IMG/VR virus record: IMGVR_UViG_3300044858_006017 | Location: 1 to 56,150 of that record | Source of the DNA: a virus | Lineage: Duplodnaviria; Caudoviricetes | Strand: one strand, 5' to 3' | DNA: 56,150 nucleotides | Part shown: piece by piece, positions 240 through 56,150 of the stretch | How positions within the stretch are numbered: position 1 is the first letter of the stretch | Layout of the letters: the number at the start of each line of letters is the position of its first letter | Notes under the pieces: generated by a model | Databases searched by the model: none | What the model was told of the DNA's origin: nothing | Seen by the model: the letters and a program-made list of their open reading frames with translations, nothing else | Made by a program: the position numbers and the translations under genes

Positions 240-266
240 TAAAGTTTTTCTGCGGAGCTCCGATAA
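240..266 (+). promoter_or_regulatory. sigma28/FliA-type promoter
   Basis: TAAAGTTT-N11-TCCGATAA, 25 nt upstream of ATG 292 with GGAGG RBS. Confidence 0.85.
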
Positions 267-291
267 GGAACGTAGAACCAAAGGAGGTTTT

Positions 292-783
292 ATGGGTAAT
301 CCTCTCGTGCCGAATAGCGGGAATGATAATGTTTACACACCTTTACAGACCGCAATAGAAGCGGTCTCTTTACTCCCTGTGCGCGGGCACGTGTTAGATC
401 CTTCATGTGGAGAAGGTGTTTTCGGGGAGGCTATCCGACAAGTTCATCAAAGTGCGGAATTAACTGAATACGATATAAAAGACGGCTTAGACTTTATGAA
501 CGAGCGTTTTTACTATAACTGGGTCATCACTAATCCGCCTTGGTCTAAATTTAAAGAGTTTCTTATTAAAGCTATGCAATGTACGGATAACGTAGCATTT
601 TTAGTGACCATCACACATTTTGTAACTAAAGCTCGGCTAAAACTTCTATGCGACCACGGGTTTTATTTAAAACAGATACACTGCATTGATACCCCACCTA
701 AACCGTGGCCCCAATCTGGTTTTCAGGTTGCAATGGTATGGTGCTCAAAAGAACCTTCGGAGGAGGTAAAATGGATTTATTAA
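292..783 (+). CDS. DNA N6-adenine methyltransferase
   Basis: Motif I LDPSCGEG, motif IV ITNPPW. Confidence 0.8.
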   Translation: MGNPLVPNSGNDNVYTPLQTAIEAVSLLPVRGHVLDPSCGEGVFGEAIRQVHQSAELTEYDIKDGLDFMNERFYYNWVITNPPWSKFKEFLIKAMQCTDNVAFLVTITHFVTKARLKLLCDHGFYLKQIHCIDTPPKPWPQSGFQVAMVWCSKEPSEEVKWIY

Positions 784-1157
784 GGATACATTACAGAGAG
801 GTCGTTACTCCGTTAGGAGTAGATTTGTTGTACGACGGAAGAACCTTAGTTTTTATGTGTAGGCAGATTTTACTGAAAACAAAACAGGCCATTATAGACC
901 AGGATGATGTTTTAGTGGTAGAGGGTGCCCGTGTTCTTTTAAGAAACCTCCCTAAATCCGGAAAGATAGACTTAAGTCCTAGTTTTAGTAAAGGTCACGG
1001 GCGTGCTTTCCAGCCAGAAACACAACAGGAGTATCTACAAACATTTGATTTTCTTGGTGTCTGCTCTATAGAAAATGAGGATATCGTTATCACGTTAGAG
1101 GTATTACCTGGGCACGGTCATCGGTGGTTTAACGCAAAAACAGGGAGATTCCTATGA
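771..1157 (+). CDS. hypothetical protein
   Basis: ORF 705..1157; start moved to ATG 771 behind GGAGG. Confidence 0.6.
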   Translation: MDLLRIHYREVVTPLGVDLLYDGRTLVFMCRQILLKTKQAIIDQDDVLVVEGARVLLRNLPKSGKIDLSPSFSKGHGRAFQPETQQEYLQTFDFLGVCSIENEDIVITLEVLPGHGHRWFNAKTGRFL

Positions 1158-1666
1158 ACATTCAGCATTCATCCAGAACGGACAGATGGTATACCCCACT
1201 CTACATAATCGAAATGGTTAAGGAGGTGTTGGGTGAAATTGACCTCGACCCCGCGTCTGAAGAACATGCCAATGAGGTAATCGGGGCACGGGAATTCTAT
1301 ACCCGGAATGCATTAAATGAAACCTGGGTAGCAAACAAGGTTTTCTTAAATCCTCCTGGAACCAAGATTGGAAACCAATCCCAATCAGCACTTTTCTGGG
1401 AAAAGCTCGTTTATCATTTTGATCGGGGACATATAGGAGAGGCTATCTTCATGGCATTCAGTGCTGAGCTGTTAGCTGTATCTCAGAAATATGGGCCTAA
1501 AAGCCTTTTGGATTTTACCGTCTGCATCCCTAAGAACAGAATTAGGTTTGTAGATCCATTAAGTCCTGGGAAATCAGCACCGAGCCATTCCAATGTGATT
1601 GTGTATTTAGGTGACAATGTAGATAAATTTAAACAGGTGTTTTCAAGAATAGGAGCTTGCAAATGA
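1154..1666 (+). CDS. phage DNA N6-adenine methyltransferase (Dam-like phage family)
   Basis: DRWYTP, DLDPAS, VFLNPPG, RIRF motifs. Confidence 0.8.
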   Translation: MNIQHSSRTDRWYTPLYIIEMVKEVLGEIDLDPASEEHANEVIGAREFYTRNALNETWVANKVFLNPPGTKIGNQSQSALFWEKLVYHFDRGHIGEAIFMAFSAELLAVSQKYGPKSLLDFTVCIPKNRIRFVDPLSPGKSAPSHSNVIVYLGDNVDKFKQVFSRIGACK

Positions 1667-2088
1667 ATTTAGAAGAATATTTAGCAGACGGGCCGAAAAA
1701 GATGTTTTCCTTGCTGGAGGGGATTGTTACTGTGGGACTAATTAACTGCCACTTTTACCCTTATATTTTAGGGGCTAAATTTAGTTATATCGATGACGGT
1801 ACACGCCCGTCATCTAAATATCGAGTTTTACTAACCCTTGAAGAAGCCGCACAACTCGGGTTTGTAAAGAGGGTGGAGAGGGTGGAGCGTAGAGTTAAAT
1901 TTAGAAGCGCCTCTAACAAAGTGTTTATAACCGGAGCCGAGTATTTAGATAAAGCTGATTTTGAAGGGCACTTTCATCACGTAAGTGCAAAAGATGGGTT
2001 TATCTCGTTCGTGGATGATGAGTTAAACGAATGTCCGCCTCCGTCCGAGGAATGGGTAGAAACAATGCCCGAATTTATGAAAGTGTAA
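1663..2088 (+). CDS. hypothetical protein, paralog of 40239 and 40643 genes
   Basis: Shares LTLEEA..LG.V and ISFVD..LNECPPP with 40239..40646. Confidence 0.7.
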   Translation: MNLEEYLADGPKKMFSLLEGIVTVGLINCHFYPYILGAKFSYIDDGTRPSSKYRVLLTLEEAAQLGFVKRVERVERRVKFRSASNKVFITGAEYLDKADFEGHFHHVSAKDGFISFVDDELNECPPPSEEWVETMPEFMKV

Positions 2089-2102
2089 AAGGAGTTGATT
2101 AA

Positions 2103-2879
2103 ATGAAAGATATTTTTGAAGGGGTAAATTTGGACCGATTTAGTTTCCCCCTGTCCTTTTCCGAACCGACAGATCGAATAATGTACTCCCTTTTCAATAA
2201 ATATTTTAAACACAGAGATGACCACCGGCCTGGCTATTATTCCTTTGATGACCGTTTAGTAGACGATATTACTAAAGGGTTTCGTTGGTATTTTCCCCTC
2301 ACTTTACGTGAGAATGCTACTGAAATGGAAAAAATACTTTTTAGCGGTATTTCTGCCCAGGTACATCTAGCTTTTGTCTTAGGGTTTAACAGCTACTGTT
2401 TTTTTAAGGGCTGGGTTTTTGACGATGACCTTGATTTCCCCGGATCGCCTGATTTCCTAGATGGTTTGACTATCGTCGGTGTTATGGATTTTTTACGGAC
2501 GCAACCCCTTAGTTACGGTAAATTTAAACGTAAGTATAAAGAAGGGCCTATAAACACCGCAGCTGTGCTGGTTCGCCCTTTTAACATAAAATATGTTCCT
2601 GATGAGGAACTTACCCAGGAACTGTGTGACTTGGCCTACAGTCTAGAACCCCGCACGGCATTCTATATCCCTGAACGATTTGGAAAAAAAAAATACCCTC
2701 CCCCTCCCCCATGTGGCCCTCTTGCCCTCTACGTAACTGACCCTTTTGCTTTATTAAAAGTACGCGACCCTTCAAAAAATAACCTGCCTACCTTTTCCGT
2801 AAACGGATATAAGGTAACCGATTATATTACAGCCGCGGGTATAAGAAGGGAAATGCGGGTGTCTGGTCTTTGGGAATAG
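2103..2879 (+). CDS. hypothetical protein, possibly with DUF4116-like repeat
   Basis: AAGGAG RBS; segment NIKYVPDEELTQELCDLA...AFYIPE resembles DUF4116 repeats. Confidence 0.55.
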   Translation: MKDIFEGVNLDRFSFPLSFSEPTDRIMYSLFNKYFKHRDDHRPGYYSFDDRLVDDITKGFRWYFPLTLRENATEMEKILFSGISAQVHLAFVLGFNSYCFFKGWVFDDDLDFPGSPDFLDGLTIVGVMDFLRTQPLSYGKFKRKYKEGPINTAAVLVRPFNIKYVPDEELTQELCDLAYSLEPRTAFYIPERFGKKKYPPPPPCGPLALYVTDPFALLKVRDPSKNNLPTFSVNGYKVTDYITAAGIRREMRVSGLWE

Positions 2880-2886
2880 TTGGCCA

Positions 2887-2923
2887 CCCGGCCAGTAAAG
2901 TCAGAAAAAATGGCCGGGGTTTT
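2887..2923 (+). terminator. putative intrinsic terminator
   Basis: CCCGGCCA/TGGCCGGG stem followed by GTTTT, just after stop 2879; large loop. Confidence 0.4.
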
Positions 2924-2946
2924 CCAAGGTGCCTATAATCATAATA

Positions 2947-2982
2947 ACCCCCCCCCCCTCCGGAATACCCCCCCCCCCTCCC
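2947..2982. repeat. tandem C11 tracts (A-C11-TCC twice, 20-bp period)
   Basis: C runs at 2948-2958 and 2968-2978. Confidence 0.8.
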
Positions 2983-3014
2983 AGGTCAGCATATTCAAAG
3001 GCTTACTCCCCCGT

Positions 3015-3209
3015 CTACCCCTCCCATCCATGGGTTAACCTCTCTCTCTCCAAAGCCTCCAGCTTTCGGAGTATAGACCAAAAATCTGGCCTATCCATAA
3101 TGGGGAGGCAGTACGCCTTCCCGTCCCTGGGTTCTATGAACAAAGTATCCGAAATGTGCTCTCTCTCTCCTCTAATGAATAACTCATCTCCAATTCTATA
3201 TGAAATCAT
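3015..3209 (-). CDS. small hypothetical early protein
   Basis: GGAGGT RBS and sigma28-type promoter directly upstream. Confidence 0.65.
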   Translation of the reverse strand: MISYRIGDELFIRGEREHISDTLFIEPRDGKAYCLPIMDRPDFWSILRKLEALERERLTHGWEG

Positions 3210-3228
3210 AAATTACCTCCTATAACAC

Positions 3229-3255
3229 CTATCGGAACATAGACGGAATACTTTA
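3229..3255 (-). promoter_or_regulatory. sigma28/FliA-type promoter
   Basis: TAAAGTAT-N11-TCCGATAG on minus strand. Confidence 0.8.
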
Positions 3256-3297
3256 ATTTAATGGAAGAGGTTGAAAGAAAAGAATAAAGGAAGAAAT

Positions 3298-3324
3298 TAA
3301 AGATTTTCTGGGAAATGACGAAGA
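3298..3324 (+). promoter_or_regulatory. sigma28-type promoter (degenerate -10)
   Basis: TAAAGATT-N11-GACGAAGA upstream of 3365. Confidence 0.55.
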
Positions 3325-3364
3325 GGATAGTAAGGGAATGAACCCACAAAGAGGAGAATAGAAA

Positions 3365-3619
3365 ATGAAAACAATAAAAGAAGTTTTAAAAAGCCACGGA
3401 ATCGAAAGCACGTCCTACATGGGGGCAGAAATCCTCTTTGTCTTGAATAGTCATGGACAATGGGAAAACGGTGACAACAACGGAGACAGGTATGCTTTTT
3501 TTCTGAAAAACAATAAAATTTATATAGAGAAAAAAAGCATAGGTTCCTACCAATGTATCCCCGTCCCCTGGAAAGGGGAACGGCCAGAGGACATGAGTTT
3601 TGAGTACTACCGGTACTAA
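3365..3619 (+). CDS. small hypothetical early protein
   Basis: GAGGAGAATAGAAAATG RBS context. Confidence 0.65.
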   Translation: MKTIKEVLKSHGIESTSYMGAEILFVLNSHGQWENGDNNGDRYAFFLKNNKIYIEKKSIGSYQCIPVPWKGERPEDMSFEYYRY

Positions 3620-3885: not shown

Positions 3886-3971
3886 AAAGATTGAAAAAAG
3901 GATCGGAAACGGGCCGGGTGGGGGGTTATGAATTTCAAGGTTTTTGAAAAGTTAAAACGAGGGGGGCGGGG

Positions 3972-6501: not shown

Positions 6502-8051
6502 TATTTAGCTCCATCTTTATAGGATCCCCATTTATTCTGGGTTTCGGGTACAGTTGGTTTAGATTTTTCAGATTCTTTTTGGACAGGTAAACTAGACTCA
6601 CCTTCCCTTTTCACAGGACTAGTTAAAAACCTACCTTTAGCGTTGAGTGGGGTATCCTCAATCTCATTTTCAAATGAAGTAAAATAACCAGCTGGTAACT
6701 GTAATTCAATTTCCTTTTGTTTGGCTCGTGTTAAAGCCTTTTCTGCATCTTTTTTAGCTTGTGCTGTGTTAGCAAGCATTGACTCCCTGATTTTCTTAAC
6801 ATCATCAATATCATAAATTGATCCTGTCCCTAAACTAGAAAGTTTAGTTTTAAACTTTTCAAGAACAGACTTACCCACAAGCATGTTTAGACCTTCCTGG
6901 CCTATGGAGCCCTGTCCTGCACCTTCAGCACTGGCTATATAGTTTAACATTGCCGCAGCATCTGCCCCTCTTTTTAAGAGAGAATCAAACTTTCTCATAA
7001 ATACTAAAGTTTTATAGTATTTGTCATAGGATTTATTGGCTTGTAACTCGTCCTGTATTTCTTTTACACGTTTATCTTTTATCGCGGCAATTTCTTCTTT
7101 AGCTTTTTCGCTATCTGTAGGGCTAACTTCCTTCATGGAAGTTTGTTCACCTTTGGAAAGACTGCTTGTCACATTAGCTCTAAGACTTTCTTGAGTTTTC
7201 TGTTGGGCTTCAAGCTCTTTCTGTTTTAGATCTAGTATCCTAGAATCTTTGCTAATCTGTTCCGCTGTTAGTCCTTGCTTAGCAAGCTGTTGTTTATAAA
7301 GTAATCCGGCCTTCTCATAGGCCACAGCTTTGGATGCATCTAGCATCGTGGAGGCGCGATTATACTCCTCCAGTAAATCTGACCTATCTCCTTTAGAAGC
7401 TGCTACAGCATCTTTTAGTTTACTTAAGCTGGCTTGCTGTTTAACAAAATCCATCTCAATGGCACTATTTAATACTTTATAAGCTGTGTTTTCCCTTCCA
7501 GTTAAAGCAGCTCCATACTCACCAATACCTACAGCGATAGCGGCTAAAGCTTTTGCAGCCAGCCCTTTATCTTGAAAAAAATCTTTAAACTGAAACTCTT
7601 TTACGGCTTTTACGGATTCGGCAATCTGGGATGCCTTTTCCTGATACTGCCTATCAAACTCCTGCTGTTTCTTGATTCTCTCCTGTTCATAAGCAATCTG
7701 GGCATCAACCTCAGCCTGAGCCTTTGCTTGAGCAGCTTTAACCTCCTCTTGTCTAAGCTGGAAAGATTGCTCCTCAAGTTCAATACGTTGTTCCGTATTC
7801 TTTTGTAGGCCTTCTTGAATGCCCGCTTCTTTTTCTGTCGGAACCTGACGGGTAGTAGAGCTCCCTGTCTGAACCTGTGAGGAACTACTTTCTAAGGAAG
7901 TAGGTAAAGAGGTAGGAGCGGGAGCTGAAACGGGTTCTGGTGCGGGAGCTGGTTGAGGTGGTGCCACAGATTGAGTAGGGGCAGGTGGAACTACTGACTG
8001 AGCAGTAGGATTAAGAATGTCTTCTTCTTTTAGAGGGTTTAAATTATCCAT
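6501..8051 (-). CDS. internal virion/DNA ejection protein
   Basis: Pro-rich N-terminus, coiled coils, ALAAIAVGIGEYGAAL segment. Confidence 0.6.
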   Translation of the reverse strand: MDNLNPLKEEDILNPTAQSVVPPAPTQSVAPPQPAPAPEPVSAPAPTSLPTSLESSSSQVQTGSSTTRQVPTEKEAGIQEGLQKNTEQRIELEEQSFQLRQEEVKAAQAKAQAEVDAQIAYEQERIKKQQEFDRQYQEKASQIAESVKAVKEFQFKDFFQDKGLAAKALAAIAVGIGEYGAALTGRENTAYKVLNSAIEMDFVKQQASLSKLKDAVAASKGDRSDLLEEYNRASTMLDASKAVAYEKAGLLYKQQLAKQGLTAEQISKDSRILDLKQKELEAQQKTQESLRANVTSSLSKGEQTSMKEVSPTDSEKAKEEIAAIKDKRVKEIQDELQANKSYDKYYKTLVFMRKFDSLLKRGADAAAMLNYIASAEGAGQGSIGQEGLNMLVGKSVLEKFKTKLSSLGTGSIYDIDDVKKIRESMLANTAQAKKDAEKALTRAKQKEIELQLPAGYFTSFENEIEDTPLNAKGRFLTSPVKREGESSLPVQKESEKSKPTVPETQNKWGSYKDGAK

Positions 8052-9730
8052 TATTTTTTCCCTTCAATTTTCTTATTAAGATAAGCAAGCCCTGCAAGTG
8101 CTGCCTGTAAAGCCTTATCCGTGTCTACTTTTAAATACCCGGTGGTTTCGTCTTTTGAAACCATTTCTTTCCCGAGGTCAGATTTAGCAATATCTTGGGC
8201 CATTACCCCAGTTCGAGATTGCCCGCCTACACCTGGAACATCTTTCTTGTAGGAATAGTCATACTCATTTAAAGCGTTAACAAAAGCCCCGATTTTCTCT
8301 GAGCTTTGGACATTTTCTTTTGCACTCTCGTCAGAGAATATTGAGGCAGCGGCCGTCCCAATAGCTGATAGAGCGCTACCTACTGCTCCTGATTTGTTTT
8401 TAGCTAAGGCAATATGGTGTTCATCCTCAGCTTTTTTGTACTGGAAGTCTCTATCAGCAGCAGCCGAGGAAGCAGCTAACAATGCCTTTAAGGATTCCAT
8501 TTCCAGTCCCATTTTCTTGGAGGCTGCATCAAGATTCATTCCTTGCGCTTGTAGGTCGGCTGCTTGATTAGCGATATCCGCTCTAAGTTTAGCGTCCGTA
8601 GCAAACCTAGCCATTTCATCTTTAGCTTTTGCGTTGAACTGATCAACATTAATTCTATTCAAGCTATCCTGAATTCTGGCTTGGAGGTTAGCTGATTGGT
8701 TGGCTTGTTTGGCTTTCATAAAAGTATCGGCTGTAAACTTATCCGCGTCCAATGCTAAAGCCGCTTGGGTTTTAGCTAAATCAGCATCAAGGTCAGCCTG
8801 TTTTATAAGTCCTCGGTTAACTTGTTCGGCTGCTGTCATCCCTTCAGTAGATGACAACTGGGCTTGGCTGGTAGCTAAACCAATATCCTGGCCACGGGCA
8901 CCTTCCGTCACCTGGCCTAATAACTGTCGGGCTTGGAGCTGTTCCGCGAGTCTTAACTTCGCACTTTCTTGAGCATTCTGGGCTTGGATGTTACCGATAT
9001 TCTGGGCAGCTGCTCTACTGGCAAGAGCTGGGTTGATACCTCGTTGGGAGGCTGCCTGAGCCATTTGGGAGGCCACAGCAGCTTCGTTTGCCTGTTGTAG
9101 CTGCGCTTGGGCTAGGGAGGGGCCTTGACCGGATGCCTGCATATTTAAGGCATTAACAAGAGCCATCTGCTGATTTCTAAAGGCGGCTTGCTGTGTGGGG
9201 TCAATAGTAGTCCCGGTGTAAGTTTGCATCGGTCCTAACTGGGTTCGAGCTATCTGTTGGGCCGTAACTCTTTCACCTGTGATAGGATCAACCATAATCT
9301 GGCCGGGCTGGGCTATTTGGGTAGCTGCTCCAGGGTCTTGAACCCCAACTTGTTGGGCGTTTACCGTAGGTAAAGATTTAGCTAAAGCTGCCGCGAACTG
9401 AGGAGCATAGACAGCTTGAGGGTTTCTGGCTAAATACTGGGCCTGAGCCTCCGCGGCTTGTCTGGCAGCTGCATCAGCCTCGGGGGCGCTGGTTATGGCT
9501 CCCGGTTTCTCTTGACCCCTGCTCTGTTGGGCTTCAGTCTGGGCATTCTTTTCGGCTGTGGTCATCCCAGGGTTAGGGTTGCCATAATCCTTAGCTTCCT
9601 GCACCTGTCGATCATTTTCCGCCGCAGCTGCTTGATTAGAAGCCTCATTTTCTTTTAGTTTATCTAAGGTTTGCCCCCCCAAAGATTTTTCATTTCCGTC
9701 ACTATCCCCGTCACTGAACCAACCCGGCAT
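8051..9730 (-). CDS. internal virion protein with C-terminal intramolecular chaperone (peptidase S74-like)
   Basis: Gln/Ala-rich body; SDESAKENV...YDYSYK...GVMAQDI chaperone motifs. Confidence 0.7.
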   Translation of the reverse strand: MPGWFSDGDSDGNEKSLGGQTLDKLKENEASNQAAAAENDRQVQEAKDYGNPNPGMTTAEKNAQTEAQQSRGQEKPGAITSAPEADAAARQAAEAQAQYLARNPQAVYAPQFAAALAKSLPTVNAQQVGVQDPGAATQIAQPGQIMVDPITGERVTAQQIARTQLGPMQTYTGTTIDPTQQAAFRNQQMALVNALNMQASGQGPSLAQAQLQQANEAAVASQMAQAASQRGINPALASRAAAQNIGNIQAQNAQESAKLRLAEQLQARQLLGQVTEGARGQDIGLATSQAQLSSTEGMTAAEQVNRGLIKQADLDADLAKTQAALALDADKFTADTFMKAKQANQSANLQARIQDSLNRINVDQFNAKAKDEMARFATDAKLRADIANQAADLQAQGMNLDAASKKMGLEMESLKALLAASSAAADRDFQYKKAEDEHHIALAKNKSGAVGSALSAIGTAAASIFSDESAKENVQSSEKIGAFVNALNEYDYSYKKDVPGVGGQSRTGVMAQDIAKSDLGKEMVSKDETTGYLKVDTDKALQAALAGLAYLNKKIEGKK

Positions 9731-9740
9731 CTTAACTCCC

Positions 9741-10424
9741 TCATGAACCGTGAACCGGCTCCATTAATTTGAATATTCTATCTAACTGTTCATCTTCATT
9801 CGTTAAAAGTTTGGATTTCTTTAATATCAAATCCGCTCTATGTCTAAAATACCCTCTATGGGACTGGGAAGCATGGATTACATCTTCAGGGGCATCGACA
9901 TCATTGTCTATATACACAAGAAAAACCTCATGTTTTTTTACTAAAGCTTCCCACTCGTTGGGGAAGTTTACATCATCTGTCCATACAAAATCAAGTGTTT
10001 CACAGGTGTCTTCAAGTAATCTGATAAATCCCACAAACATTTTTGTATGTGCGAGTTCGTCATAATCCCGGATGACTTCCGTTCCTAAGAACTGCATAGC
10101 GTGTCTAATCGAATGGAGGTAAAGCCCTTCAACACGTTCCAATAAAAAGTCCATCGGTATACCAAACTTATAGTTTATGAGTTCACAGTCTTCTTTTGTA
10201 GCCACGATCCGGTAGTTTACCATGTCTTCTTTGATTTTGAGATTGTTTAAAAGGTTTAGAGATAGGTTAAATCCGTGGTTCGTATAAATATCACATACAA
10301 GCTCTTTCAAAGGAGCAGCCACAGACACTTTCATCCCAAAAAGATGATTGTATTTTTTCTCAAAACTATACCCTGTAGTTGTTTTACCCGCTCCGTGAGG
10401 GCCTGTGAATACTAAAACTTTCAT
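9741..10424 (-). CDS. deoxynucleoside monophosphate kinase
   Basis: P-loop TGPHGAGKTT, AAPLKE, RHAMQFLGTE. Confidence 0.8.
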   Translation of the reverse strand: MKVLVFTGPHGAGKTTTGYSFEKKYNHLFGMKVSVAAPLKELVCDIYTNHGFNLSLNLLNNLKIKEDMVNYRIVATKEDCELINYKFGIPMDFLLERVEGLYLHSIRHAMQFLGTEVIRDYDELAHTKMFVGFIRLLEDTCETLDFVWTDDVNFPNEWEALVKKHEVFLVYIDNDVDAPEDVIHASQSHRGYFRHRADLILKKSKLLTNEDEQLDRIFKLMEPVHGS

Positions 10425-10427
10425 TAT

Positions 10428-10835
10428 CTACTCCGTTTTTGCTTTTGCCGCCCTCTTACTTTTCGGAGTTTTCTCCATTAACTTGATAGGTAGTGCCCAC
10501 TTTGGAAAGGAGGATAGTTGGGGGAGGATTTCCATCATGCTTTGAGCGAAAGTTTCTACAAGAGTCTCCTCATCTAAATGGGGGACGGAGGCTGGGCTTA
10601 AGGTTTCTAGAATAGCGTGGCTAATTTCGTGCCATAATATCAAGGAGATATATTCGGGGGTGGAATCTTTGGTGTAAACTGTGATTTTTTGTTTACGGAA
10701 ATCAGCTAAACCTACGAATTCAGTAGGTTCCTCGTGTTGGTTTGCTTCTACAGACCACTTTCGGCCTCTTAAAATAAAGTTAAAAGGCTCTAAACGCTTA
10801 TTATCATTGGGTGACCGTTGTCTATTAGCATGCAT
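10428..10835 (-). CDS. HEXXH metallopeptidase-like phage protein
   Basis: LWHEISHAI...DEETLVE; true start probably downstream of 10835. Confidence 0.6.
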   Translation of the reverse strand: MHANRQRSPNDNKRLEPFNFILRGRKWSVEANQHEEPTEFVGLADFRKQKITVYTKDSTPEYISLILWHEISHAILETLSPASVPHLDEETLVETFAQSMMEILPQLSSFPKWALPIKLMEKTPKSKRAAKAKTE

Positions 10836-11440
10836 TTGTTAGCTACCGCCTTCCTTAAGCCTTTGTGGTATGAAAAAGCTACTGAAGAGGTGTCAATCAA
10901 GCAACCTGCCTCAGCCCCAAACACACTATGACCTAAAGTTTCCACGAACTCAATATAGCATTGGTGAGTATGCCCTTGAACCACTGATTTCCCTAATAAT
11001 TTTGCCTTATCTATAGCTTTCATGGGGGCAAAATCCCCGTGCATATAAATAACCTTATCGATTTCAAGAGGTTTATGGTGCCATGCCCATCCTTCAAAGT
11101 CAAACTCGTTCCATGGAGCTATCATATTCTGGTGTTTCGTGGGTAATCTGCCGATTTTAGCCGATTTAATCATCCGGTGGTCGTGATTCCCTACTAAAAT
11201 ATCCATTTCAGGGAATAATCTGTGCATTTTCTTCATGTTTTCGCACACTCGTTTATACTCGATGTCGGGAGCGTCATGGGATACTTCCTTTTCAAACCGT
11301 GACCAGGAATACCCATCGATGATGTCTCCAAGTTGAATTATCCTATCTACATTCAACCTTAAAGCCAGCTTAGCAACGGCTTGGAGCTTTACCCAGTTCG
11401 TAAAAGGAAGATGGATATCCGGTATAGCTAATACTTTCAT
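10790..11440 (-). CDS. calcineurin-like metallophosphoesterase
   Basis: DIH, GDIID, GNHD, HG, GHTH motifs. Confidence 0.85.
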   Translation of the reverse strand: MKVLAIPDIHLPFTNWVKLQAVAKLALRLNVDRIIQLGDIIDGYSWSRFEKEVSHDAPDIEYKRVCENMKKMHRLFPEMDILVGNHDHRMIKSAKIGRLPTKHQNMIAPWNEFDFEGWAWHHKPLEIDKVIYMHGDFAPMKAIDKAKLLGKSVVQGHTHQCYIEFVETLGHSVFGAEAGCLIDTSSVAFSYHKGLRKAVANKCMLIDNGHPMIISV

Positions 11441-18846: not shown

Positions 18847-18874
18847 TTATCGGAATAAGTTTTAAAAACCTTTA
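18847..18874 (-). promoter_or_regulatory. sigma28-type promoter of replication operon
   Basis: (T)AAAGGTTT-N11-TCCGATAA upstream of ATG 18830. Confidence 0.75.
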
Positions 18875-20214: not shown

Positions 20215-20607
20215 CTAGGGCAAATTACTCTCAAAATGACAAAATTCTTTAAAACTTTTCCACTTACCTGCCCACATTAAAGGCAGTTCCAAACCTTTTG
20301 CTAACTGTGCCAGCATTATAAACTTTCCAATACCCCAATCAGCTTTCTCATTTACCAAGAAAAACAGATCTACAGCTCTTCCGTGGTTATGGGCAGACCG
20401 TCCACCTTTAGCATTAGTTGCAATAGGCCCTGGTTTGCTCCGGCCTTGCTCAAATAAAGCGTTTTGTTCTTCAAATGAGCGGAATCCGGAAGCTACTTGC
20501 ACATTTAAACCTTTTGCATGGGCCTCTTTTAGTAACTTTTCAATAGCTACTTTAAAGCTAGGTTCTAGTTTTTTCAGTTTTTCAACTGAATACGGTTTTA
20601 AATTCAT
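20215..20607 (-). CDS. endolysin, M15-family L-Ala-D-Glu peptidase
   Basis: SGFRS.EEQ..L...GR, SAHNHGRAVD, HFE. Confidence 0.85.
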   Translation of the reverse strand: MNLKPYSVEKLKKLEPSFKVAIEKLLKEAHAKGLNVQVASGFRSFEEQNALFEQGRSKPGPIATNAKGGRSAHNHGRAVDLFFLVNEKADWGIGKFIMLAQLAKGLELPLMWAGKWKSFKEFCHFESNLP

Positions 20608-30976: not shown

Positions 30977-30982
30977 TTAAAC

Positions 30983-34000: not shown

Positions 34001-34016
34001 AAAGCTGCGGCAGCTT

Positions 34017-34043
34017 TAAAGTTTTCCTATATTCCTCCGATAT
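34017..34043 (+). promoter_or_regulatory. sigma28-type promoter
   Basis: TAAAGTTT-N11-TCCGATAT, preceded by AAAGCTG/CAGCTTT hairpin. Confidence 0.85.
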
Positions 34044-36210: not shown

Positions 36211-36237
36211 TAAAGTTCTTCTCAAAAGTTCCGATAT
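36211..36237 (+). promoter_or_regulatory. sigma28-type promoter
   Basis: TAAAGTTC-N11-TCCGATAT, nearly identical to the 32519 copy. Confidence 0.85.
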
Positions 36238-36280
36238 GTAAAACAGAGGCAATTTAGCCTCTTTTATTTTAGGAGTAATT

Positions 36281-37731: not shown

Positions 37732-37758
37732 TAAAGTTTTCCTGTGAATCACCGATAT
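37732..37758 (+). promoter_or_regulatory. sigma28-type promoter
   Basis: TAAAGTTT-N11-ACCGATAT. Confidence 0.85.
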
Positions 37759-39248: not shown

Positions 39249-39610
39249 TAATGGAATACATAACTTTAGCTTCACTTTACGTCTCGACTACTTACGGATA
39301 TGGTGAGATGTATTGTGGGGATGAGAGCAACCCTGCCACATGTGATTCCGGGGCCACCACGGCTTCAGGATTACCTTTTAATCCTGATATGCCTTACGTT
39401 GCTGTCCCGGCTCCTGTAGGGCTTAGAATCGTCCCACAGACTATATTCTTTTGGTCAGATAAATACCAAAGTTGTATTCCTCTCCAAGTGGTGGATAAGA
39501 AGAACCAAAGATTTGTTGGTGAAGGTGGATTTGACTTTACTCCGGGCGCGCTAAAGAAATTAGGAATTGTTCCGAAAAGATATTGGAGCGGACGAGTGAA
39601 CGTTTGCTGA
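39245..39610 (+). CDS. RlpA/3D-like double-psi beta-barrel protein
   Basis: TTASG.PFNP...VAVP, VVD, DFTPGA..KLG. Confidence 0.6.
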   Translation: MIMEYITLASLYVSTTYGYGEMYCGDESNPATCDSGATTASGLPFNPDMPYVAVPAPVGLRIVPQTIFFWSDKYQSCIPLQVVDKKNQRFVGEGGFDFTPGALKKLGIVPKRYWSGRVNVC

Positions 39611-39621: not shown

Positions 39622-39984
39622 ATGAAACTAAATAGGCTAAAGAAACAATACGTAACGCTGAATGGGTGTAAGTGTGAAGGCACAAAAGAGCAGGTTTTGG
39701 CCTTGAAAGCCAAAATCAGCGAGTTTGTTCGACTCTACTGTGTTGGACTCTACTGGGGTAAAAACAATCAACTCTATTGGGATAAAAACAAGCGTGTAAA
39801 ACCAGCCATTATCAAAGCTATTGTATATGAGCTGTTTGACTTTCACCAAGACGAACCCAAGCGCATCATCGAGGAATTAACAAAAACAATGGTAAAAAAG
39901 ATAGAAGAGTTCAAAACTTCTTCCCCTTCTAAGGAAGAACTAGACCTCTATCCAACTCTATTCTGGGATGGGGATGGTTGGTGA
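39622..39984 (+). CDS. hypothetical protein
   Basis: GGAGGT RBS. Confidence 0.6.
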   Translation: MKLNRLKKQYVTLNGCKCEGTKEQVLALKAKISEFVRLYCVGLYWGKNNQLYWDKNKRVKPAIIKAIVYELFDFHQDEPKRIIEELTKTMVKKIEEFKTSSPSKEELDLYPTLFWDGDGW

Positions 39985-40026: not shown

Positions 40027-40242
40027 ATGAACGAGGAATGGTTTTATTGCCCTAAAAAACAACGAGATAACCAATTAATTCGAAAAACAATCCGCACCTT
40101 GAAATTAGACCTTAGTAGGGGGGTGTCTAACGATGATAATTTTTACGAAGATGGGTTAGAGATAGGGCCAGAAGACAAGGTTCACATTTCCAAGAACGAA
40201 AAAGGCCAATACAAGGTTTTTATATGGAAGGTCTCTAAATGA
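40027..40242 (+). CDS. hypothetical protein
   Basis: GGAGGT RBS. Confidence 0.6.
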   Translation: MNEEWFYCPKKQRDNQLIRKTIRTLKLDLSRGVSNDDNFYEDGLEIGPEDKVHISKNEKGQYKVFIWKVSK

Positions 40243-40646
40243 CTTTTAAGGCAGGCGATAAAGTTTACTTTTATAGCTACGGGGTTGCCGAACTGAGAAC
40301 GAATGACGACCCAGAGTACCCTCTAAAGGTAAGGGCAAACGGTACGACCACCCTTACACAATGCGGTAGAAGATACTCCGATGATAAATACCCTTCCATC
40401 ATTACCCTAGAAAAAGCGGAGAAAATGGGGTTAGTGAGGAAAAAGGGGGAACACTATAAAGGGTTGCGGGTTAAGTATTATGACAAAGCCACCGAGTCAT
40501 ATTTTATAGCACACGACCTCTACTACAGAAGTGAAGAGGAATTTGAGTTCGAACACCCTGAATTCCTACTCATCTCGTTCGTAGACGAGAAACTAAACGA
40601 GTGTCCACCGCCCCAAGAAAACATAGAATGGGAGGAGAATGTATGA
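40239..40646 (+). CDS. hypothetical protein, paralog family
   Basis: FK.GDKVY, PSIITLE.AEK.GLV, ISFVDEKLNECPPP. Confidence 0.7.
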   Translation: MTFKAGDKVYFYSYGVAELRTNDDPEYPLKVRANGTTTLTQCGRRYSDDKYPSIITLEKAEKMGLVRKKGEHYKGLRVKYYDKATESYFIAHDLYYRSEEEFEFEHPEFLLISFVDEKLNECPPPQENIEWEENV

Positions 40647-41083
40647 TTTTCAAACCGGGTGATAAAGTTTACAGCTATAGGCATGGCATTGTAACTCTTG
40701 TAGAAGTAGAGGATGCACTTACGTCTGAATTCTCTATAGGGATACAGACCGAGATAGGAATTGAAGGACATACGGCCGAGGGAAGATGTCTAACAATAGA
40801 CAAATTTCCATCCATCATTACCCTTGAATTTGCTGAAAAAAGGGGTTTAGTACAAAAAAGAAATGTGAGACATACGCGACGGCATGCGTACATAGACAAA
40901 AGAGATGACTCATTTCACATTACCACCAATTCGTATGGTAGATGGGCGGATAAATGGGATGATTATGACTATCCAGAGCCGGATTATTTAGAGTTTATGT
41001 ATTACGTGGACGGCCAAGGTAATAGATGTAAGTGGCCAGAAGATACCTTTGAATGGGAGGAGACTTTAAGGGTGCAAAGGTGA
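40643..41083 (+). CDS. hypothetical protein, paralog family
   Basis: FKPGDKVY, FPSIITLEFAEKRGLV, EWEE; start moved to ATG 40643. Confidence 0.7.
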   Translation: MIFKPGDKVYSYRHGIVTLVEVEDALTSEFSIGIQTEIGIEGHTAEGRCLTIDKFPSIITLEFAEKRGLVQKRNVRHTRRHAYIDKRDDSFHITTNSYGRWADKWDDYDYPEPDYLEFMYYVDGQGNRCKWPEDTFEWEETLRVQR

Positions 41084-41298
41084 AACCGATTTAGAGTATA
41101 AAAACATCCGCGTTGTTATGGGGTTTGACTCATGAATGAAGAATTAAAAAGGCAAATTGAGATACTACAACGGCAGGTCGTTCTACTGAGGTGCATTTTG
41201 CAGTCAGTGTGCCCGGCCAATAACAAGTATATAAACGAATGCTTAAAACAATTACGTGACCTAAGTTTACAACAGGCGCGTGACTTAGGGGGCTCTGT

Positions 41299-47344: not shown

Positions 47345-47400
47345 CCTTGATTTTTTACATCACTTTATGTATATACGTAACTTGAGCCTAAAAATCAAGG
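47345..47400. promoter_or_regulatory. symmetric bidirectional sigma70-like promoter
   Basis: TTGATT-N17-TATATA on both strands sharing palindromic TATATA 47370-47375; CCTTGATTTTT/AAAAATCAAGG inverted repeat. Confidence 0.65.
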
Positions 47401-49079: not shown

Positions 49080-50534
49080 ATGACTACCACCGCGAACATG
49101 GGGTTATCCCTCCCCTCACCTGGAGTGGATGAGGGCCCTGGATGGGCAGAACAGCTTAACGACTCTCTTTCACTTGTCGACTTACATAATCACACGGCAG
49201 GGAAAGGGACTAAAATCCCTGTAGCAGGTCTAGACCTTCAAGCTGACTTGACCATCAATAGTAATAGCCATACAGATGTTAAATCTGTTAAATTCACCTC
49301 CCAATCTTCATCTCTAACGACTACAAATGCAGTTTATGTGGTAAACGGAGAGCTTTATTTTTCAGATAGTGGCGGGACGAATGTCCAGATAACCTCTGGA
49401 GGAAGTTTAAACCTAGCCTCTACAGGTACAATTGGTGGAGACTATGCGCAAGTAGGGGTAAACGCTACGGTTACTTATTCAGATACTACAAAAACCTATA
49501 GTTTTCTCCAAGCTGCGGGGTCTACCGCTAAAATGTATTCTGCTAAGATCTCTCTTGCTGATTCCGCTGGAGGGTCTAACGCGGTAGGTATCATTCCTCC
49601 TGTAGGATTAGCTTCAGGCTATGATTTAACTCTCCCCACAGCCGCTCCGGGGGCGGATCAGGTGCTCGCCTTTGCTTCAGGAGGTCAAGCATCTTTTAGA
49701 GATATAAACGGGACATCCGGCCAAGTATCTGTTTCAAAAACAGGCTCCGCTTTCACCGTAGGACTGCCTACAACTATAACACAGGACTTAAATTTTACTG
49801 GGAACATCACCGGACGGGGGATTATTCCCGTAGGTGGTATTATTGCCCTCAATACAAACTTGACAGGGGTGACTGCTGTAACAGCCACCACTGCGGCGGA
49901 CGCTAATGGGTTTGTTGTTTGTGGATCAGTTACACAGCCTCAAGTGATTGTAGATCCGACCTCCCCTATGAATGGCCAAACTATCCCTAACCTGAACGAT
50001 TCCTACTTCTTGATGGGGGCGTCCTCATCCGGCTCTACAGGAGGAGCAAATACCACCACTTTAACAACCACCCAACTTCCAGCTCACACACACACAATTG
50101 ACCACGGGCATTCAAACTCTTTCGCTTTAAGTAACAACACAGTAGCAAGCTCGAGCCATACCCACACTATTGCGCACGTACATCAAGTGGGGTATGCCTC
50201 TTTTGCCTCTAATAATGTACGAGCTCAAAGCTCTAGGGCATCTAGTACTTTAAGTTTTACTACAGGGGCTCAGGAGTATTTAAGCAACACGGGTCTAGCG
50301 GGTGGAGGGGAGTCCGCGGTAACAACATCTTATACAGGTAATCTGTACTCCGCAGGAGCAACAGATGATTCCGGTACAGCTGCAATTTCAGGGACACCTT
50401 CAGCGACGTCTACCGTAACTTTAACTGGCTCAGTAACCTCCCATTCAGGCTCAAGCGGAAGCTCAGGGACAGGAAGTAGCTATGATTCCAGACCGAAATT
50501 TTTTGCTGTAAAATATATCATGAGGATCAAGTAG
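49080..50534 (+). CDS. tail fibre with collar-like domain and HxH tip motifs
   Basis: IPVGGII...PNL...FLMG, LTTTQLPAHTH, HTH/HVH repeats, P.F.AVKYIMRIK. Confidence 0.75.
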   Translation: MTTTANMGLSLPSPGVDEGPGWAEQLNDSLSLVDLHNHTAGKGTKIPVAGLDLQADLTINSNSHTDVKSVKFTSQSSSLTTTNAVYVVNGELYFSDSGGTNVQITSGGSLNLASTGTIGGDYAQVGVNATVTYSDTTKTYSFLQAAGSTAKMYSAKISLADSAGGSNAVGIIPPVGLASGYDLTLPTAAPGADQVLAFASGGQASFRDINGTSGQVSVSKTGSAFTVGLPTTITQDLNFTGNITGRGIIPVGGIIALNTNLTGVTAVTATTAADANGFVVCGSVTQPQVIVDPTSPMNGQTIPNLNDSYFLMGASSSGSTGGANTTTLTTTQLPAHTHTIDHGHSNSFALSNNTVASSSHTHTIAHVHQVGYASFASNNVRAQSSRASSTLSFTTGAQEYLSNTGLAGGGESAVTTSYTGNLYSAGATDDSGTAAISGTPSATSTVTLTGSVTSHSGSSGSSGTGSSYDSRPKFFAVKYIMRIK

Positions 50535-50536
50535 TT

Positions 50537-50806
50537 ATGACAAATATAATAGACTTCGGTGATAGATTAAAACAGAAAAATCTAAACACTCGTGCCGACC
50601 GGATGGTAACACTCTCGGCTTCTATAGATAAGTTACTAAACGGCTATATACACGACATGGGTGGACTAGATGACCGTGTAATAACTGAATTACTTACCTA
50701 TTTAAATTATGCATTTTTAAACTTAGAAGATATGTTAATGGATAAAAGACACGCAGAAATGGCACATGAGCTAGCTGTTAATGCTTTTTTGGAGAAAAAT
50801 AAATGA
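50537..50806 (+). CDS. hypothetical protein
   Basis: Coupled ORF in tail operon. Confidence 0.55.
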   Translation: MTNIIDFGDRLKQKNLNTRADRMVTLSASIDKLLNGYIHDMGGLDDRVITELLTYLNYAFLNLEDMLMDKRHAEMAHELAVNAFLEKNK

Positions 50807-51039
50807 ATATGCGTTATAAATTCTATTTTCGTCGTAAGTTTTTTTGGAAGTCTTTCACGGTTATTGGGCATAAATATGAAACCTCCGTGGACAAAATGTT
50901 ACTCTTTTTTGAAGATGGTGGGGTCCAAGAAATTAAAAACTTTAAGGACTGTGAAGTGAAGCTTAAGCAAGATTGGGTTTTAGCCCAGAAAAAATCCCTT
51001 GAAGCGCAAACAGGACAGCCCCTAAACATGGTGGTGTGA
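50803..51039 (+). CDS. hypothetical protein
   Basis: Coupled ORF in tail operon. Confidence 0.55.
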   Translation: MNMRYKFYFRRKFFWKSFTVIGHKYETSVDKMLLFFEDGGVQEIKNFKDCEVKLKQDWVLAQKKSLEAQTGQPLNMVV

Positions 51040-51040: not shown

Positions 51041-54000
51041 ATGGCTCTTCAGAAACAATTAGTTCAAGCTCCTTTAGGATTAGGAATAGATACAAAAACC
51101 GACCCGAAACAGGTAGCCTCCTCCGGCTTGCTTGAATTAGAAAACGGAATCATAAAGCAGACGGGAGAAATCCGAAAACGCTACGGAGTTGCTAAACTTA
51201 GTGGCGACATTCTTCAATCTGATTCTAATATCAGCTCCAGTTCTAAACTGGAAACCTATAATAACGAGCTACTTTTATTTAATCGGGATAATGTGTTCTC
51301 CTACGCAGAATCCCTAAATGCATGGGCCAATAAAGGACTTTTAAGTACTATAGATGGCTCCACCTCACCTATTGTTGCTAACAGTTATGAGCAAACAGGC
51401 GGAGATATTGCATCAACAAATGGCATAACTCTTTATGCATGGGAAGATAGCCGCGGAGGTGTTCGCTATTCTGTTATAGACCAAGCATCAGGGGCAGCAC
51501 TTGTTTATGATGCTCAAGTAAACATTAATGGTATGCGGCCGAGGTGTGTCGCAGTAGGTGCATACTTTTTCTTATTTTGCTACCAAACTTTTACCAACAA
51601 TTTAGAGGTTTACAGAATCTCTACTACCAGCCCAAGTTTAGGAGTATCCGCTACAGCGGCAGGAGATATCTCAACCACAGAACCTATTTATGATGTTACT
51701 GTGTTTGGCTCCCGTATGCTTTTAGCCTATAAAAATACATCAAACAAATTAAAATTTACTTACTGGTTACAGACAAATATCACAGGAAACCCTGCCTATG
51801 GTGTCCCCTCTGCATTAGAGATTACAGCTGAAACCCCTTCTCAGTGCCTAACTATTATTCAAGGGGAAGACTTTGGATCAACTCCTACTTTCAGCATTTT
51901 ATTTTTTAATAGCTCAACAGGACTCCGGCATTTAGCTTATTATGCAGATTTTACTGAGTACAAATCGGCTATCGTCGTAGACAACACTGTTTCCCCTATT
52001 GTCAGAAATGTGACCGCTGTAGCACATGGCGAAAAAATAGAATATTTCGCCGAATATGAGGCAGCTTCGGCTATCAATCGCTACATAAAACGAGGTGAAG
52101 TCTATCTTGCCCCTAACAGTGCGGCCAATGTGGCGGAATTCCAACGGGCAGGTGGACTAGTATCAAAAGCCTACCGTGTAAACGATGCTACGAAAGTACA
52201 TGTTAGCTACGAATCCACTGCGAACTTTCTCAATACTTTATTTGTTTTAGGAACAGCAGAGGATCGAAGTGGTGCCCTAGGGTGGGGGTACAACTGGGGT
52301 TATGATTGGGGAGGCATATCTCTCTATGCTGTGGTGGAAAGTAAACTCCTGACAGGTGTCCATGGAGGCCATAATTTAGAGGGGGCGGGTGGACTAGATG
52401 GGTCAAGCCCTTTACCCGGGGTTTGGTTTACAGCTGCAAATGAGGCTATCTCTTGCACTTCTAGAAGAACTAGAATAGTTGCCGACAATATCTCTACTTA
52501 TACCCTCCGTGGCTTGGATAAAATCGAAATTGATTACAATGCTGCCCGTGTAGGCCCTTCAGCGCAACTTGGTGAAAATCTCCATATACCTGGAGGTTTT
52601 CTAAGAGCTTATGACGGCGTTAGTGTAGTGGAACACGGATTCCACATGTTCCCTGACGCAATCCAGGTAGCTAACTCGGTTACAGCGGGTTCGGTGGCTA
52701 ATGGAACTTATCAATATGTGGCTGTGTATGAATGGATTGATGGAAAAGGCCAACTCCATAGGTCAGCTCCATCCATTCCTGTATCCCACACCGTCTCAGG
52801 AGGTCCTAAAGGCGTGGACATCACCGTCCCTACCTTAAGGTATACTGCAAAGCAAAGCCCTGAAAGGACAGCTCCTATTGTCGCTATTTATCGGACTACA
52901 AACGCGGGAACACTTTACTATAAAGTAAGTGATGATACGGATCCTTTATATAATCTAGTTAATGCAGATACTGTAACATTTGTAGACACCTTAGCGGATG
53001 CCTCAATCACTTCCAAACCGCTTCTTTACACCACCGGTGGAACTCTAGAAAATATTTCGGTTCCCGCCTGTAACATTGTAGCTTCCTTTGATAACCGTCT
53101 GTTTATCGCAGGATTAGAGCAACCTAATGACCTAATGTTCAGTAAACAATGGGTTGTAGATGAAGGAGTTGCCTTTAATGATTTCCTCCGAATTAATGTG
53201 AGCCCTACCGGAGGAGAGATTACCTCTATATTCCCAATGGATGACAAGCTCATCATCTTCAAACAAAACGCTATCTACTATCTTTCAGGGGAAGGCCCTA
53301 CAGATGTAGGCCAACAAAACCTCTACCGCATCCAACAGATAGCTTCAGATGTAGGTTGTTCCGTGCCTGAGAGTGTTTGTCTGATGCCTTTAGGTTTGAT
53401 GTTTAAATCCCTCAAGGGGATTTATCTCTTAGACCGAGCCTTGAATGCTGTCTATATCGGCTCCCAAGTAGAGGCCTATAACGGTTTGTCTATCACCGGC
53501 GGAAACTTAGTCCCCACCCAAAACCAGGTTAGGTTTACTTCGTCCGAAGGTAGGACGTTGGTGTTCGACTATTATTTCAAACAATGGTTCACATTTACAG
53601 GACAATCTGCATCCAGCTCTATTGCATGGAAAAACCAGTTTACGTATTCAGCCTCAGATGGAAGTGTTTTCTCTGAGGAGGATGGTAGATATGACGATAA
53701 TGGTTCTGTAATTTCAACCAAAATCACCACAGGCTGGCTATCTTTTGCAGGGCTTCAGGGATACAAAAGGGTGTATTTAGCCCAGCTTTTCGGTGAGTTA
53801 AAAGGTTCCCATACGTTAAGTGTTAAACTAAGCTATGACTTTAAAAACTCCTATAGTGAAGAGTTTACGGCGGCGCTTGATACAGGTGCAACCTATGGGG
53901 ACGGTTTATATGGGGATATAGGGGTTTACGGCGGGACAGATGGAACAATGCACTATGAGGTTCAACCTGCTAGACAGAAATGCACCTCTATAAAAGTGAC

Positions 54001-54393: not shown

Positions 54394-54397
54394 CTTT

Positions 54398-54824: not shown

Positions 54825-54829
54825 TTTCT

Positions 54830-55093
54830 TTACTCCTTTTCTTCGCGATCTAGTAGTGCTAGTTTTCTTTCGAGACAGTATATAAAACGCTCTTTTACCT
54901 TATCTACTTTCTCCTTACGAAAAAACCAGGCTCCCTCAAGACCCGCGTTTTTTTCACGATTTTTTTCTATAAGTCGATGCCTAATCTCATCTAACCTTTC
55001 CACTTCAGATTCGTAGTCTCCCCGAGCATTCTCGATATCCTTATCGATCAGGTCGTGTAACATTGCTAATGTCTGTCGTCGTGATATCTGCAT
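54830..55093 (-). CDS. hypothetical protein
   Basis: Start moved to MQISRR behind AAGGAG. Confidence 0.6.
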   Translation of the reverse strand: MQISRRQTLAMLHDLIDKDIENARGDYESEVERLDEIRHRLIEKNREKNAGLEGAWFFRKEKVDKVKERFIYCLERKLALLDREEKE

Positions 55094-55134
55094 TTTGTTT
55101 CTCCTTTTATTGAGCTGTATTGCTCTTATAATCC

Positions 55135-55161
55135 TTTTCGACACATTTTCAAAAAACTTTA
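55135..55161 (-). promoter_or_regulatory. sigma28-type promoter
   Basis: TAAAGTTT-N11-GTCGAAAA. Confidence 0.6.
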
Positions 55162-56013
55162 GCACATATAGTCGGTATCTGTTTTTCTACCAGGGTCATC
55201 TTCTTCGGAGGCGTATCCCCAGATACCAAAGAAGTCGTGTGCTGCAATCCGCACCATATGTCGAAATTTTTTTGATGATATCACCCCTACACCTCTGTCC
55301 CTAATAAATAACTGCACTGCGTGGTCTTTCGGTATGTCATCAATATTGATACCCGGGTGTCTATTAGGGTCTCTTATGCCCCTAAAAACCCTTCTACCAT
55401 ATTCCTCCTCATCTGCTGGTCGATTAAAATTTTTTAGTTTTTTATCATGTTTCATAAAATGATCCTGTAAAAACAGGAATATGCTCCATGTATATGGTCT
55501 AACCAACTCACAGCTTTTTGTAAAATACTCCCTGTTTTCAGGAAGAAACATCCAGTCTTCATACTTCCTTGGTTCCTTCTTCATTTTTTCATAAGGTGTT
55601 AAACTGTCATCGGAATTTTTGATAAAAGGTTGATGAATGTACCCCAGGCCATATGAAGCCAGATGCAGCATTACATGCCTGTAGTCTAAAAAATTAGCTA
55701 TAGTTACATCCATACCAGATATCAAAGTCTGATTGATTTTATCGATTGTTAGTTTAATGTCTAATGCATGGTTTGTAGGTTCTTTATAATTTTTATGAAA
55801 AAACTCTATACACTTCTTTTTCCACTCTCTGTGCATTCTTAATGTGTATTGCTCATCAGTTTCGTCCCTATAATAAGATTTCATCCACTCGAACGGGCCA
55901 CGACTATACGGATCATTGAACAAAACATCAGGAAACTGCTCAGGCTCTAAACCAAAAAGCAATTTATTTACCACCATCATTGGGTATGTAAATGTTTCAA
56001 TAACACAGGGCAT
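55159..56013 (-). CDS. hypothetical protein
   Basis: Start moved to MPCVIE behind AAGGAG; the ORF-track ATG lies inside the promoter. Confidence 0.65.
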   Translation of the reverse strand: MPCVIETFTYPMMVVNKLLFGLEPEQFPDVLFNDPYSRGPFEWMKSYYRDETDEQYTLRMHREWKKKCIEFFHKNYKEPTNHALDIKLTIDKINQTLISGMDVTIANFLDYRHVMLHLASYGLGYIHQPFIKNSDDSLTPYEKMKKEPRKYEDWMFLPENREYFTKSCELVRPYTWSIFLFLQDHFMKHDKKLKNFNRPADEEEYGRRVFRGIRDPNRHPGINIDDIPKDHAVQLFIRDRGVGVISSKKFRHMVRIAAHDFFGIWGYASEEDDPGRKTDTDYMC

Positions 56014-56040
56014 TCTGATTCTCCTTATCAACCTACCTAT

Positions 56041-56150
56041 TATCCTCTTCGTCATTTCCCAGAAAATCTTTAATTTCTTCCTTTATTCTTTTCTTTCAAC
56101 CTCTTCCATTAAATTAAAGTATTCCGTCTATGTTCCGATAGGTGTTATAG
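56041..56150. repeat. 110-bp inverted repeat, copy 2, at contig end
   Basis: Exact reverse complement of 3220..3329; contains sigma28-type promoters at 56046-56072 (-) and 56115-56141 (+). Confidence 0.9.

Follow-up and report, generated by a model that had tools for sequence, protein, structure and literature searches.

IMG/VR record IMGVR_UViG_3300044858_006017 derives from an uncultivated freshwater phage of 56 kb, and the whole record (56,150 bp, G+C 42.3%, linear class, CheckV completeness estimate 100%) was analysed here and is referred to as the window. The window repeatedly carries a 27-nucleotide (nt) element made of two boxes, TAAAGTTY-N11-TCCGATAD, which resembles the promoters of the flagellar sigma factor sigma28 (FliA or SigD) and is the subject of this study. 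Pfam and PHROGs scans, which covered about 59 of the about 91 open reading frames (ORFs), identified an SU10-type adaptor and portal, a major head protein, a large terminase, a helicase, a split family-A DNA polymerase, PhoH, RecT, a Cas4-like exonuclease and a dNMP kinase, together with a set of nucleotide-metabolism enzymes (class II ribonucleotide reductase, dUTPase, thymidylate synthase and dCMP deaminase), Dam-like methylases, two homing endonucleases and an M15 endolysin. No tRNA gene was found in the window, and an Rfam search of it returned zero matches. The window is a lytic phage of the SU10 capsid type, and its capsid protein falls into a large family of environmental proteins (1,643 members at E<1e-5 among 8,000 scored candidates, many with PF17236).

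The element is strongly over-represented. Five exact matches to TAAAGTTY-N11-TCCGATAD occur in the window against 0.00 in 100 shuffles, and 15 matches with at most two mismatches, where the shuffles average 0.38 and never exceed 3. From 11 seed sites, with CCGAT kept in 11/11, a matrix was made that gives 16 window matches scoring at least 14 bits, compared with 0.37 for 30 shuffles. The distance between the boxes is nearly fixed: TAAAG and CCGAT are separated by N15 ten times in the window, by N16 three times and by no other spacing between N9 and N19 more than once, and the N15 spacing is found at 18 sites in a 169-kb viral record (G001) and at 7 sites in a capsid-family relative of the window (G025). 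Spacers and flanks vary among the copies, the two boxes being constant. All of the strong sites (at most two mismatches, n=12) face a downstream unit, a Shine-Dalgarno sequence and a start codon follow 17-44 nt past the box at 10/12, and 9/12 lie in intergenic DNA, which makes up only about 4.6% of the window. Three variant sites, 3298+, 55135- and 56046-, combine a good -35 box with a degenerate -10 box of the form G(A/T)CGAA (GACGAAGA or GTCGAAAA), score 10-16 bits and still have a Shine-Dalgarno sequence and a start codon downstream; two further weak sites of this degenerate -10 kind, 39552+ and 10460-, also lie upstream of start codons. The matches at 14871-, 46509+ and 46981+ (at most two mismatches), absent from the list of the earlier note, are intragenic with no start codon after them and look like chance. 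The twelve strong sites are listed first, followed by the variant and weak sites and by two other features of the window:

240-266, plus strand: strong predicted sigma28-type promoter of the methyltransferase operon 292-2879 (MTS and Dam matches); exact match, Shine-Dalgarno sequence and ATG 26 nt on.
3229-3255, minus strand: strong site before a 64-residue ORF (3209-3015), one half of a divergent cassette; one mismatch, AGGAGG and ATG 20 nt downstream.
18847-18873, minus strand: strong site heading the replication/recombination module (Cas4-like exonuclease, helicase, RecT, split PolA); GGAGG and ATG 17 nt downstream.
24751-24777, minus strand: strong site before a GIY-YIG homing endonuclease gene (PHROGs homing endonuclease match); at most two mismatches, also found by the matrix.
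31370-31396, plus strand: strong site with a hairpin and a terminator-like site (31442-31464) after it and no ORF, a short-RNA candidate; exact match.
31485-31511, plus strand: strong site before an Ant-like gene (ATG at about 31553, end at 32521; PHROGs anti-repressor match); at most two mismatches.
32519-32545, plus strand: strong site before small genes at 32567-33000; exact match, start codon context.
32957-32983, plus strand: strong site before a GmrSD_N-like gene (33020-34000; Pfam match); at most two mismatches.
34017-34043, plus strand: strong site before a gene for a 90-residue protein and the class II ribonucleotide reductase gene; exact match.
36211-36237, plus strand: strong site, then a 5' stem-loop, before a gene for a 96-residue protein, the dUTPase gene and others; exact match.
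37732-37758, plus strand: strong site before small genes starting at 37790; one mismatch.
56115-56141, plus strand: strong site reading out of the contig, an inverted copy of 3229-; at most two mismatches, within an inverted repeat.
3298-3324, plus strand: variant with -10 box GACGAAGA, resembling that of E. coli fliC (GACGATAA), before ORF 3365-3619, the other half of the divergent cassette; 10.3 bits.
55135-55161, minus strand: variant with -10 box GTCGAAAA before a gene with ATG near 55093; 16.2 bits, AAGGAGA and ATG 42 nt downstream.
56046-56072, minus strand: variant before a 298-residue ORF (56055-55159), a copy of 3298+; within the inverted repeat, found by the matrix.
10460-10486, minus strand: weak variant with -10 box TCCGAAAA before the dNMP kinase gene (10424-9741; kinase match); 9.0 bits, GGAG and ATG 36 nt downstream.
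39552-39578, plus strand: weak variant with -10 box TCCGAAAA before gene 39622-39984; 13.4 bits, GAGGAGG and ATG about 43 nt past the box.
3220-3332, no strand: inverted-repeat arm with the divergent promoter cassette; 113 nt, 99% complementary to 56038-56150.
30427-30454, minus strand: sigma70-type site TTGACA-16-TATACT (11/12 matches) before an 81-residue ORF, a GNAT-like gene, the large terminase gene and the capsid operon.

The motif heads the methylase operon, the replication module, a block of nucleotide-metabolism and small genes at 31-40 kb, a homing endonuclease gene and small genes at both ends, and no copy was found in the portal, adaptor, capsid and terminase/packaging operons of the window. 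The regulon spans non-structural modules only. An earlier note on this DNA had called it genome-wide, which is too strong because the structural operons carry zero copies. That note had counted about 15 copies, 12 of which hold up within two mismatches, the remaining 3298+, 55135- and 56046- being degenerate in the -10 box. Its other observations were reproduced, namely an invariant 11-nt spacer (ten N15 sites, no more than three at any other spacing), a position shortly before the ribosome-binding site and start codon, a copy at 31370 ahead of a short-RNA candidate, and a copy at 56115 pointing off the contig end.

The enterobacterial sigma28 consensus is TAAAGTTT-N11-GCCGATAA, and FliA-dependent transcription extends to flxA in the E. 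coli Qin prophage. We applied the phage matrix, its spacer neutralised, to 23 kb of E. coli K-12 in which the flagellar and chemotaxis operons lie. At 12 bits or more, only four matches were obtained, upstream of fliD, fliC, tar and motA, with a spacer of 11 nt in all of them; the sigma28 dependence of these four operons is established knowledge. At motA, the MotR RNA is annotated as beginning 7 nt past the box. Since the E. coli fliC box is GACGATAA, the degenerate ACGA boxes of the phage are plausible as weak sites. The same matrix applied to Bdellovibrio phage phi1422 gives scores of up to 15 bits with poor -10 boxes, and therefore only higher scores are specific. The likeness of boxes and spacing to FliA sites, which the earlier note had drawn from the consensus, is borne out by this recovery of the fliC, fliD, tar and motA sites, and as far as sequence goes the sigma28 reading has good support.

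No recognisable sigma factor is encoded alongside these sites. A six-frame search of the window with PF04542, PF04545, TIGR02937 and TIGR02479 (Sigma70_r2, Sigma70_r4, general sigma70/extracytoplasmic function (ECF) and FliA/WhiG, respectively) gave no match, and the fifth profile, PF08281 (r4_2), hit only a 15-position helix-turn-helix in a 70-residue ORF (E=0.009). No RNA polymerase was named in the Pfam and PHROGs scans of the ORFs covered, polymerase families not being searched directly. The same sigma search did find diverged phage sigma factors in 2/20 other records, at 40.6 and 90.1 bits; the match at 40.6 bits, to a diverged sigma factor of 260 residues, shows that the method is sensitive. 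Homologues of these two proteins (the 260-residue one and an ECF-type one) are absent from the window and from records G001, G002, G025, G031 and G032, and no candidate regulator common to the window, G001, G025 and G032 was found. The earlier note was right that no sigma factor is recognisable in the window.

Two kinds of candidate were considered and rejected in these comparisons. A ClpP-like protease is common to G001 (113151-113900), G025 (40554-41297), G032 (6587-7327) and G031 (53095-53817), the window being without it. Weak region-4 matches proved to be an HNH endonuclease with a helix-turn-helix tail in G006 and, in G001, a helix-turn-helix protein.

The arrays recur in other viral records, as the earlier note had proposed to check. 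In G001, a myovirus-like record otherwise unrelated to the window, found by a motif scan of viral contigs and carrying tail sheath and portal genes, 18 copies lie in a 30-kb small-gene block, each preceding a Shine-Dalgarno site and an ATG; the overlap of this genome with the window is limited to the M15 endolysin, a two-gene tail module and weak nucleotide-metabolism matches. In three family relatives of the window (G002, G025 and G032; capsid 33-43% identical), the motif precedes their own, unrelated small genes. Among 20 further records, 10 hold at least five copies against 0-1 in the reversed control, at G+C contents from 29% to 53%, and a sigma match above the curated cut-off was obtained in only 1/20. 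These 20 were taken from 203 motif-selected loci (at least two matches in the stored stretch, plus L229), and since they were picked for holding the motif, their counts are not prevalence figures. No sigma factor was found in 19 capsid-family records (of 80 loci, longer records being chosen), and a BLAST search of the G001 promoter against isolated phages gave chance matches only. Because unrelated phages with the same arrays have no candidate regulator in common with the window, a host-encoded reader is favoured, and the spread of the arrays from 29% to 53% G+C makes it likely that many hosts are involved. The recurrence would be best explained if several phage lineages had each come, on their own, to use a conserved cellular sigma factor.

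Taken together, these data suggest, with a probability of roughly 0.6, that the 27-nt elements are sigma28-class promoters read by the host FliA/SigD holoenzyme. The host holoenzyme would bind the phage promoters and start transcription about 7 nt past the -10 box, and the motif-headed genes would be expressed early. The units served would be those for DNA methylases, replication and recombination, nucleotide metabolism, small accessory genes, a homing endonuclease and one short RNA. Operons for packaging and structure appear to run on sigma70-type sites instead. With host sigma28 as the reader, this part of the phage programme would unfold only in cells with an active flagellar sigma factor. 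More broadly, and with slightly less than an even chance of being right, a sizeable and previously overlooked set of aquatic tailed phages may run their non-structural, probably early programme on host sigma28 rather than on sigma70, with several origins and with lineages of the type of record G024 owning a sigma28-like factor whose -10 preference is altered; at this same tentative level, the set of such phages would span genomes of 55-60 kb of the SU10 capsid type and unrelated myoviruses of 90-240 kb.

Several observations weigh against a host flagellar sigma factor as the reader. The four RNA-labelled runs consist of assembled contigs of relatives at 90-99% with no molecule ends, so that no transcript start, timing or sigma dependence was observed. 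A near-consensus sigma70 site before the structural operon clouds the order of expression. At most two mismatches being allowed, Bdellovibrio phage phi1422 is at background only (2 matches against 3 in the control), as is the flagellotropic Salmonella phage Chi (4 against 1). Within the capsid family, at least four matches are present in only 2/19 records. Record G024 carries both a diverged sigma factor and a closely similar motif, TAAAGTTT-N11-TCCGTTA, and about 40 ORFs of the window are without known function.

The most probable alternative, which we regard as unlikely, is that the promoters are read via a phage factor, either an over-diverged sigma or a redirector of RNA polymerase, made first from a few sigma70-type promoters. 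G024 (L283, L303; 120.6 kb) has 34 motif-like sites along the length of its genome, mostly with a CCGTTA -10 box and a few with CCGATA, plus the 260-residue diverged sigma factor; here the phage may own a sigma28-like system that prefers a different -10 box. Similarly, record G028 has the ECF-type sigma factor and 7 sites. In the window, a sigma70-type site with an extended -10 box (30999-31028) precedes a gene without known function, and the many uncharacterised ORFs leave room for a novel specificity factor. However, the 98-residue product of that gene is too small for reading two boxes. The boxes and spacer are those of canonical sigma28, and a sigma factor keeping that specificity should also keep regions 2 and 4, for which the five profiles gave nothing in six frames. 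Neither phage sigma factor has a homologue in the window, and the phages with the arrays share no candidate regulator with it, the one family shared among them, the ClpP-like one, being missing from the window.

A second alternative, which appears improbable, keeps the host sigma28-family factor as the reader and gives it a wider, non-flagellar role, so that expression would track a life-cycle stage and not motility. Such wider roles are exemplified by FliA of attack-phase Bdellovibrio and by chlamydial sigma28. The DNA of the window occurs in 24 sequencing runs from 18 studies, mostly freshwater and lake metagenomes, where such predators live. The published attack-phase motif of B. bacteriovorus is TTAAG-N16-CCGATA, present at 92/140 attack-phase promoters (PMC3627812). 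This published spacing is one base wider than the N15 of the window, phi1422 does not rise above its control, the range of G+C contents among the arrays is too broad for one host group, and there is no host evidence of any kind: against 50,697 isolated phages, the window has no nucleotide or capsid match and its portal matches actinophages at only 22%, the only match of the thymidylate synthase gene (34%) lies in a Latescibacterota metagenome-assembled genome, and the endolysin falls into viral clusters only in the protein atlas. The earlier note had coupled its host flagellar sigma reading to a predatory Bdellovibrionota host. The first part is partly supported by the box and spacer match, by the searches that found no sigma factor and by the recurrence in unrelated phages; the Bdellovibrionota part gained no support, given the phi1422 background, the spacing and the G+C range of the arrays.

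That the repeats are not promoters at all, and instead represent operators, sites for packaging or recombination, or a mobile cassette in several copies, is very improbable: although 32519 and 36211 share 93% identity across 29 nt, one cassette has an inverted duplicate and one relative lacks a stretch (33022-34040) that ends inside a motif, the spacers and flanks differ between copies around fixed boxes, every copy faces a gene at promoter distance from a Shine-Dalgarno site, and the same two-box pattern marks known sigma28 promoter sites in E. coli.

The sigma70-type sites are not enriched in the window (29 against 34.5 expected, and 31 against 35.6 expected). At the place in G025 equivalent to 30427-30454, the sequence is TTGACT-17-TATAAC. 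Between the divergent sigma70-type sites of the window lie about 540 nt (30455-30998) without a convincing ORF and without an Rfam match, and in two runs the contigs of relatives part from the window exactly at 30455, beside the -35 box. A symmetric element, TTGATT-N17-TATATA-N17-AATCAA, occupies 47347-47398 between the divergent portal and adaptor operons and may represent two back-to-back promoters with one common palindromic -10 box.

Other features were noted around the promoters. The inverted repeat formed by 3220-3332 and 56038-56150 is perfect over about 108 nt, and its second copy stops exactly at the contig end; it could mean that positions 1-3332 are a long inverted terminal repeat, that a 3.2-kb segment can invert, or that the assembly breaks here. 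In the relative without 33022-34040, seen in one run, the GmrSD_N-like gene is gone from its start codon into the -10 box of the next promoter; genes may thus be exchanged as cassettes bounded by promoters. Similar stem-loops, GGCAAT..TAGCC, follow promoters at the predicted 5' ends of transcripts in the window (36245-36262), in G001 (about 112285) and in G025 (about 45040). The tail pair common to the window and G001 is 47% and 55% identical (49080-51039 in the window, 9288-11068 in G001) and the endolysin 39% (20215-20607 and 29927-30370), which hints at one host gene pool.

Elsewhere in the window, positions 1-240 are a non-coding leader rich in TGTCTA/TAGACA and GTGTATATAAAGTAG-like repeats, which may serve as an origin, as a packaging site or as an array of operators. 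Two convergent gaps (2930-3000 and 3900-3971) contain runs of 10-12 C plus G-rich runs, unusual at 42% G+C. Three paralogous small genes (1657-2088, 40239-40646 and 40601-41083) have in common a PSIITLE-AEK-GLV segment and a C-terminal EWEE motif.

Lytic phages are known either to begin infection with host sigma70 promoters or to supply a polymerase or sigma factor themselves. If host sigma28 does read the phage promoters, infection would be confined to motile cells, and the phage could switch off sigma70-dependent transcription at no cost to itself. The arrays in unrelated viral records suggest a general strategy that would be predictable from sequence alone, and since sigma28 recognition is conserved, the phage promoters are open to direct test. 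The reading would also provide a new feature for host prediction (motile, fliA-positive) and a collection of short sigma28 promoters that differ stepwise in strength.

In the literature searched, no phage was found to be described as having a regulon of sigma28 promoters, and several known systems share parts of it. One likeness is to the class 3 flagellar promoters (FliA in enterobacteria, SigD in Bacillus), which like the phage sites have TAAAGTTT-like and CCGATA(A/T)-like boxes with an 11-nt gap; the GACGATAA box of E. coli fliC resembles the degenerate ACGA -10 boxes of the phage, and just as the E. coli motA site precedes the annotated MotR RNA, phage site 31370 precedes a short-RNA candidate. 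In contrast to the class 3 promoters, the phage sites head replication, methylase and nucleotide-metabolism genes and not motility genes, and the base before CCGATA is mostly T in the phage and G in the flagellar promoters. The attack-phase FliA regulon of Bdellovibrio likewise places a sigma28-type motif over many non-flagellar genes and some small RNAs (PMC3627812), whereas that regulon is chromosomal with an N16 spacing, and phi1422, the one Bdellovibrio phage tested, is without such sites. Podoviruses of the phiEco32, 7-11 and SU10 type share with the window the SU10-type capsid, portal and adaptor and a distinct promoter class for part of the genome. These phages are described as having their own sigma factor and a single-element promoter, TAATGTATA or TGATGT (PMC4331800); the window, by comparison, is without a detectable sigma gene, and its motif consists of two boxes instead of one TAATGTATA-like element. 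Finally, and nearest in concept, pilus- and flagellum-binding phages of Alphaproteobacteria capture host CtrA in what is termed 'lytic deferment', with independent origins in several lineages (PMC9437464). As in these phages, the window would depend on a host factor tied to the motile state, with sites in phage promoter regions; CtrA is a response regulator acting on ordinary promoters, whereas in the window the promoter class, and hence the sigma factor, would be what differs.

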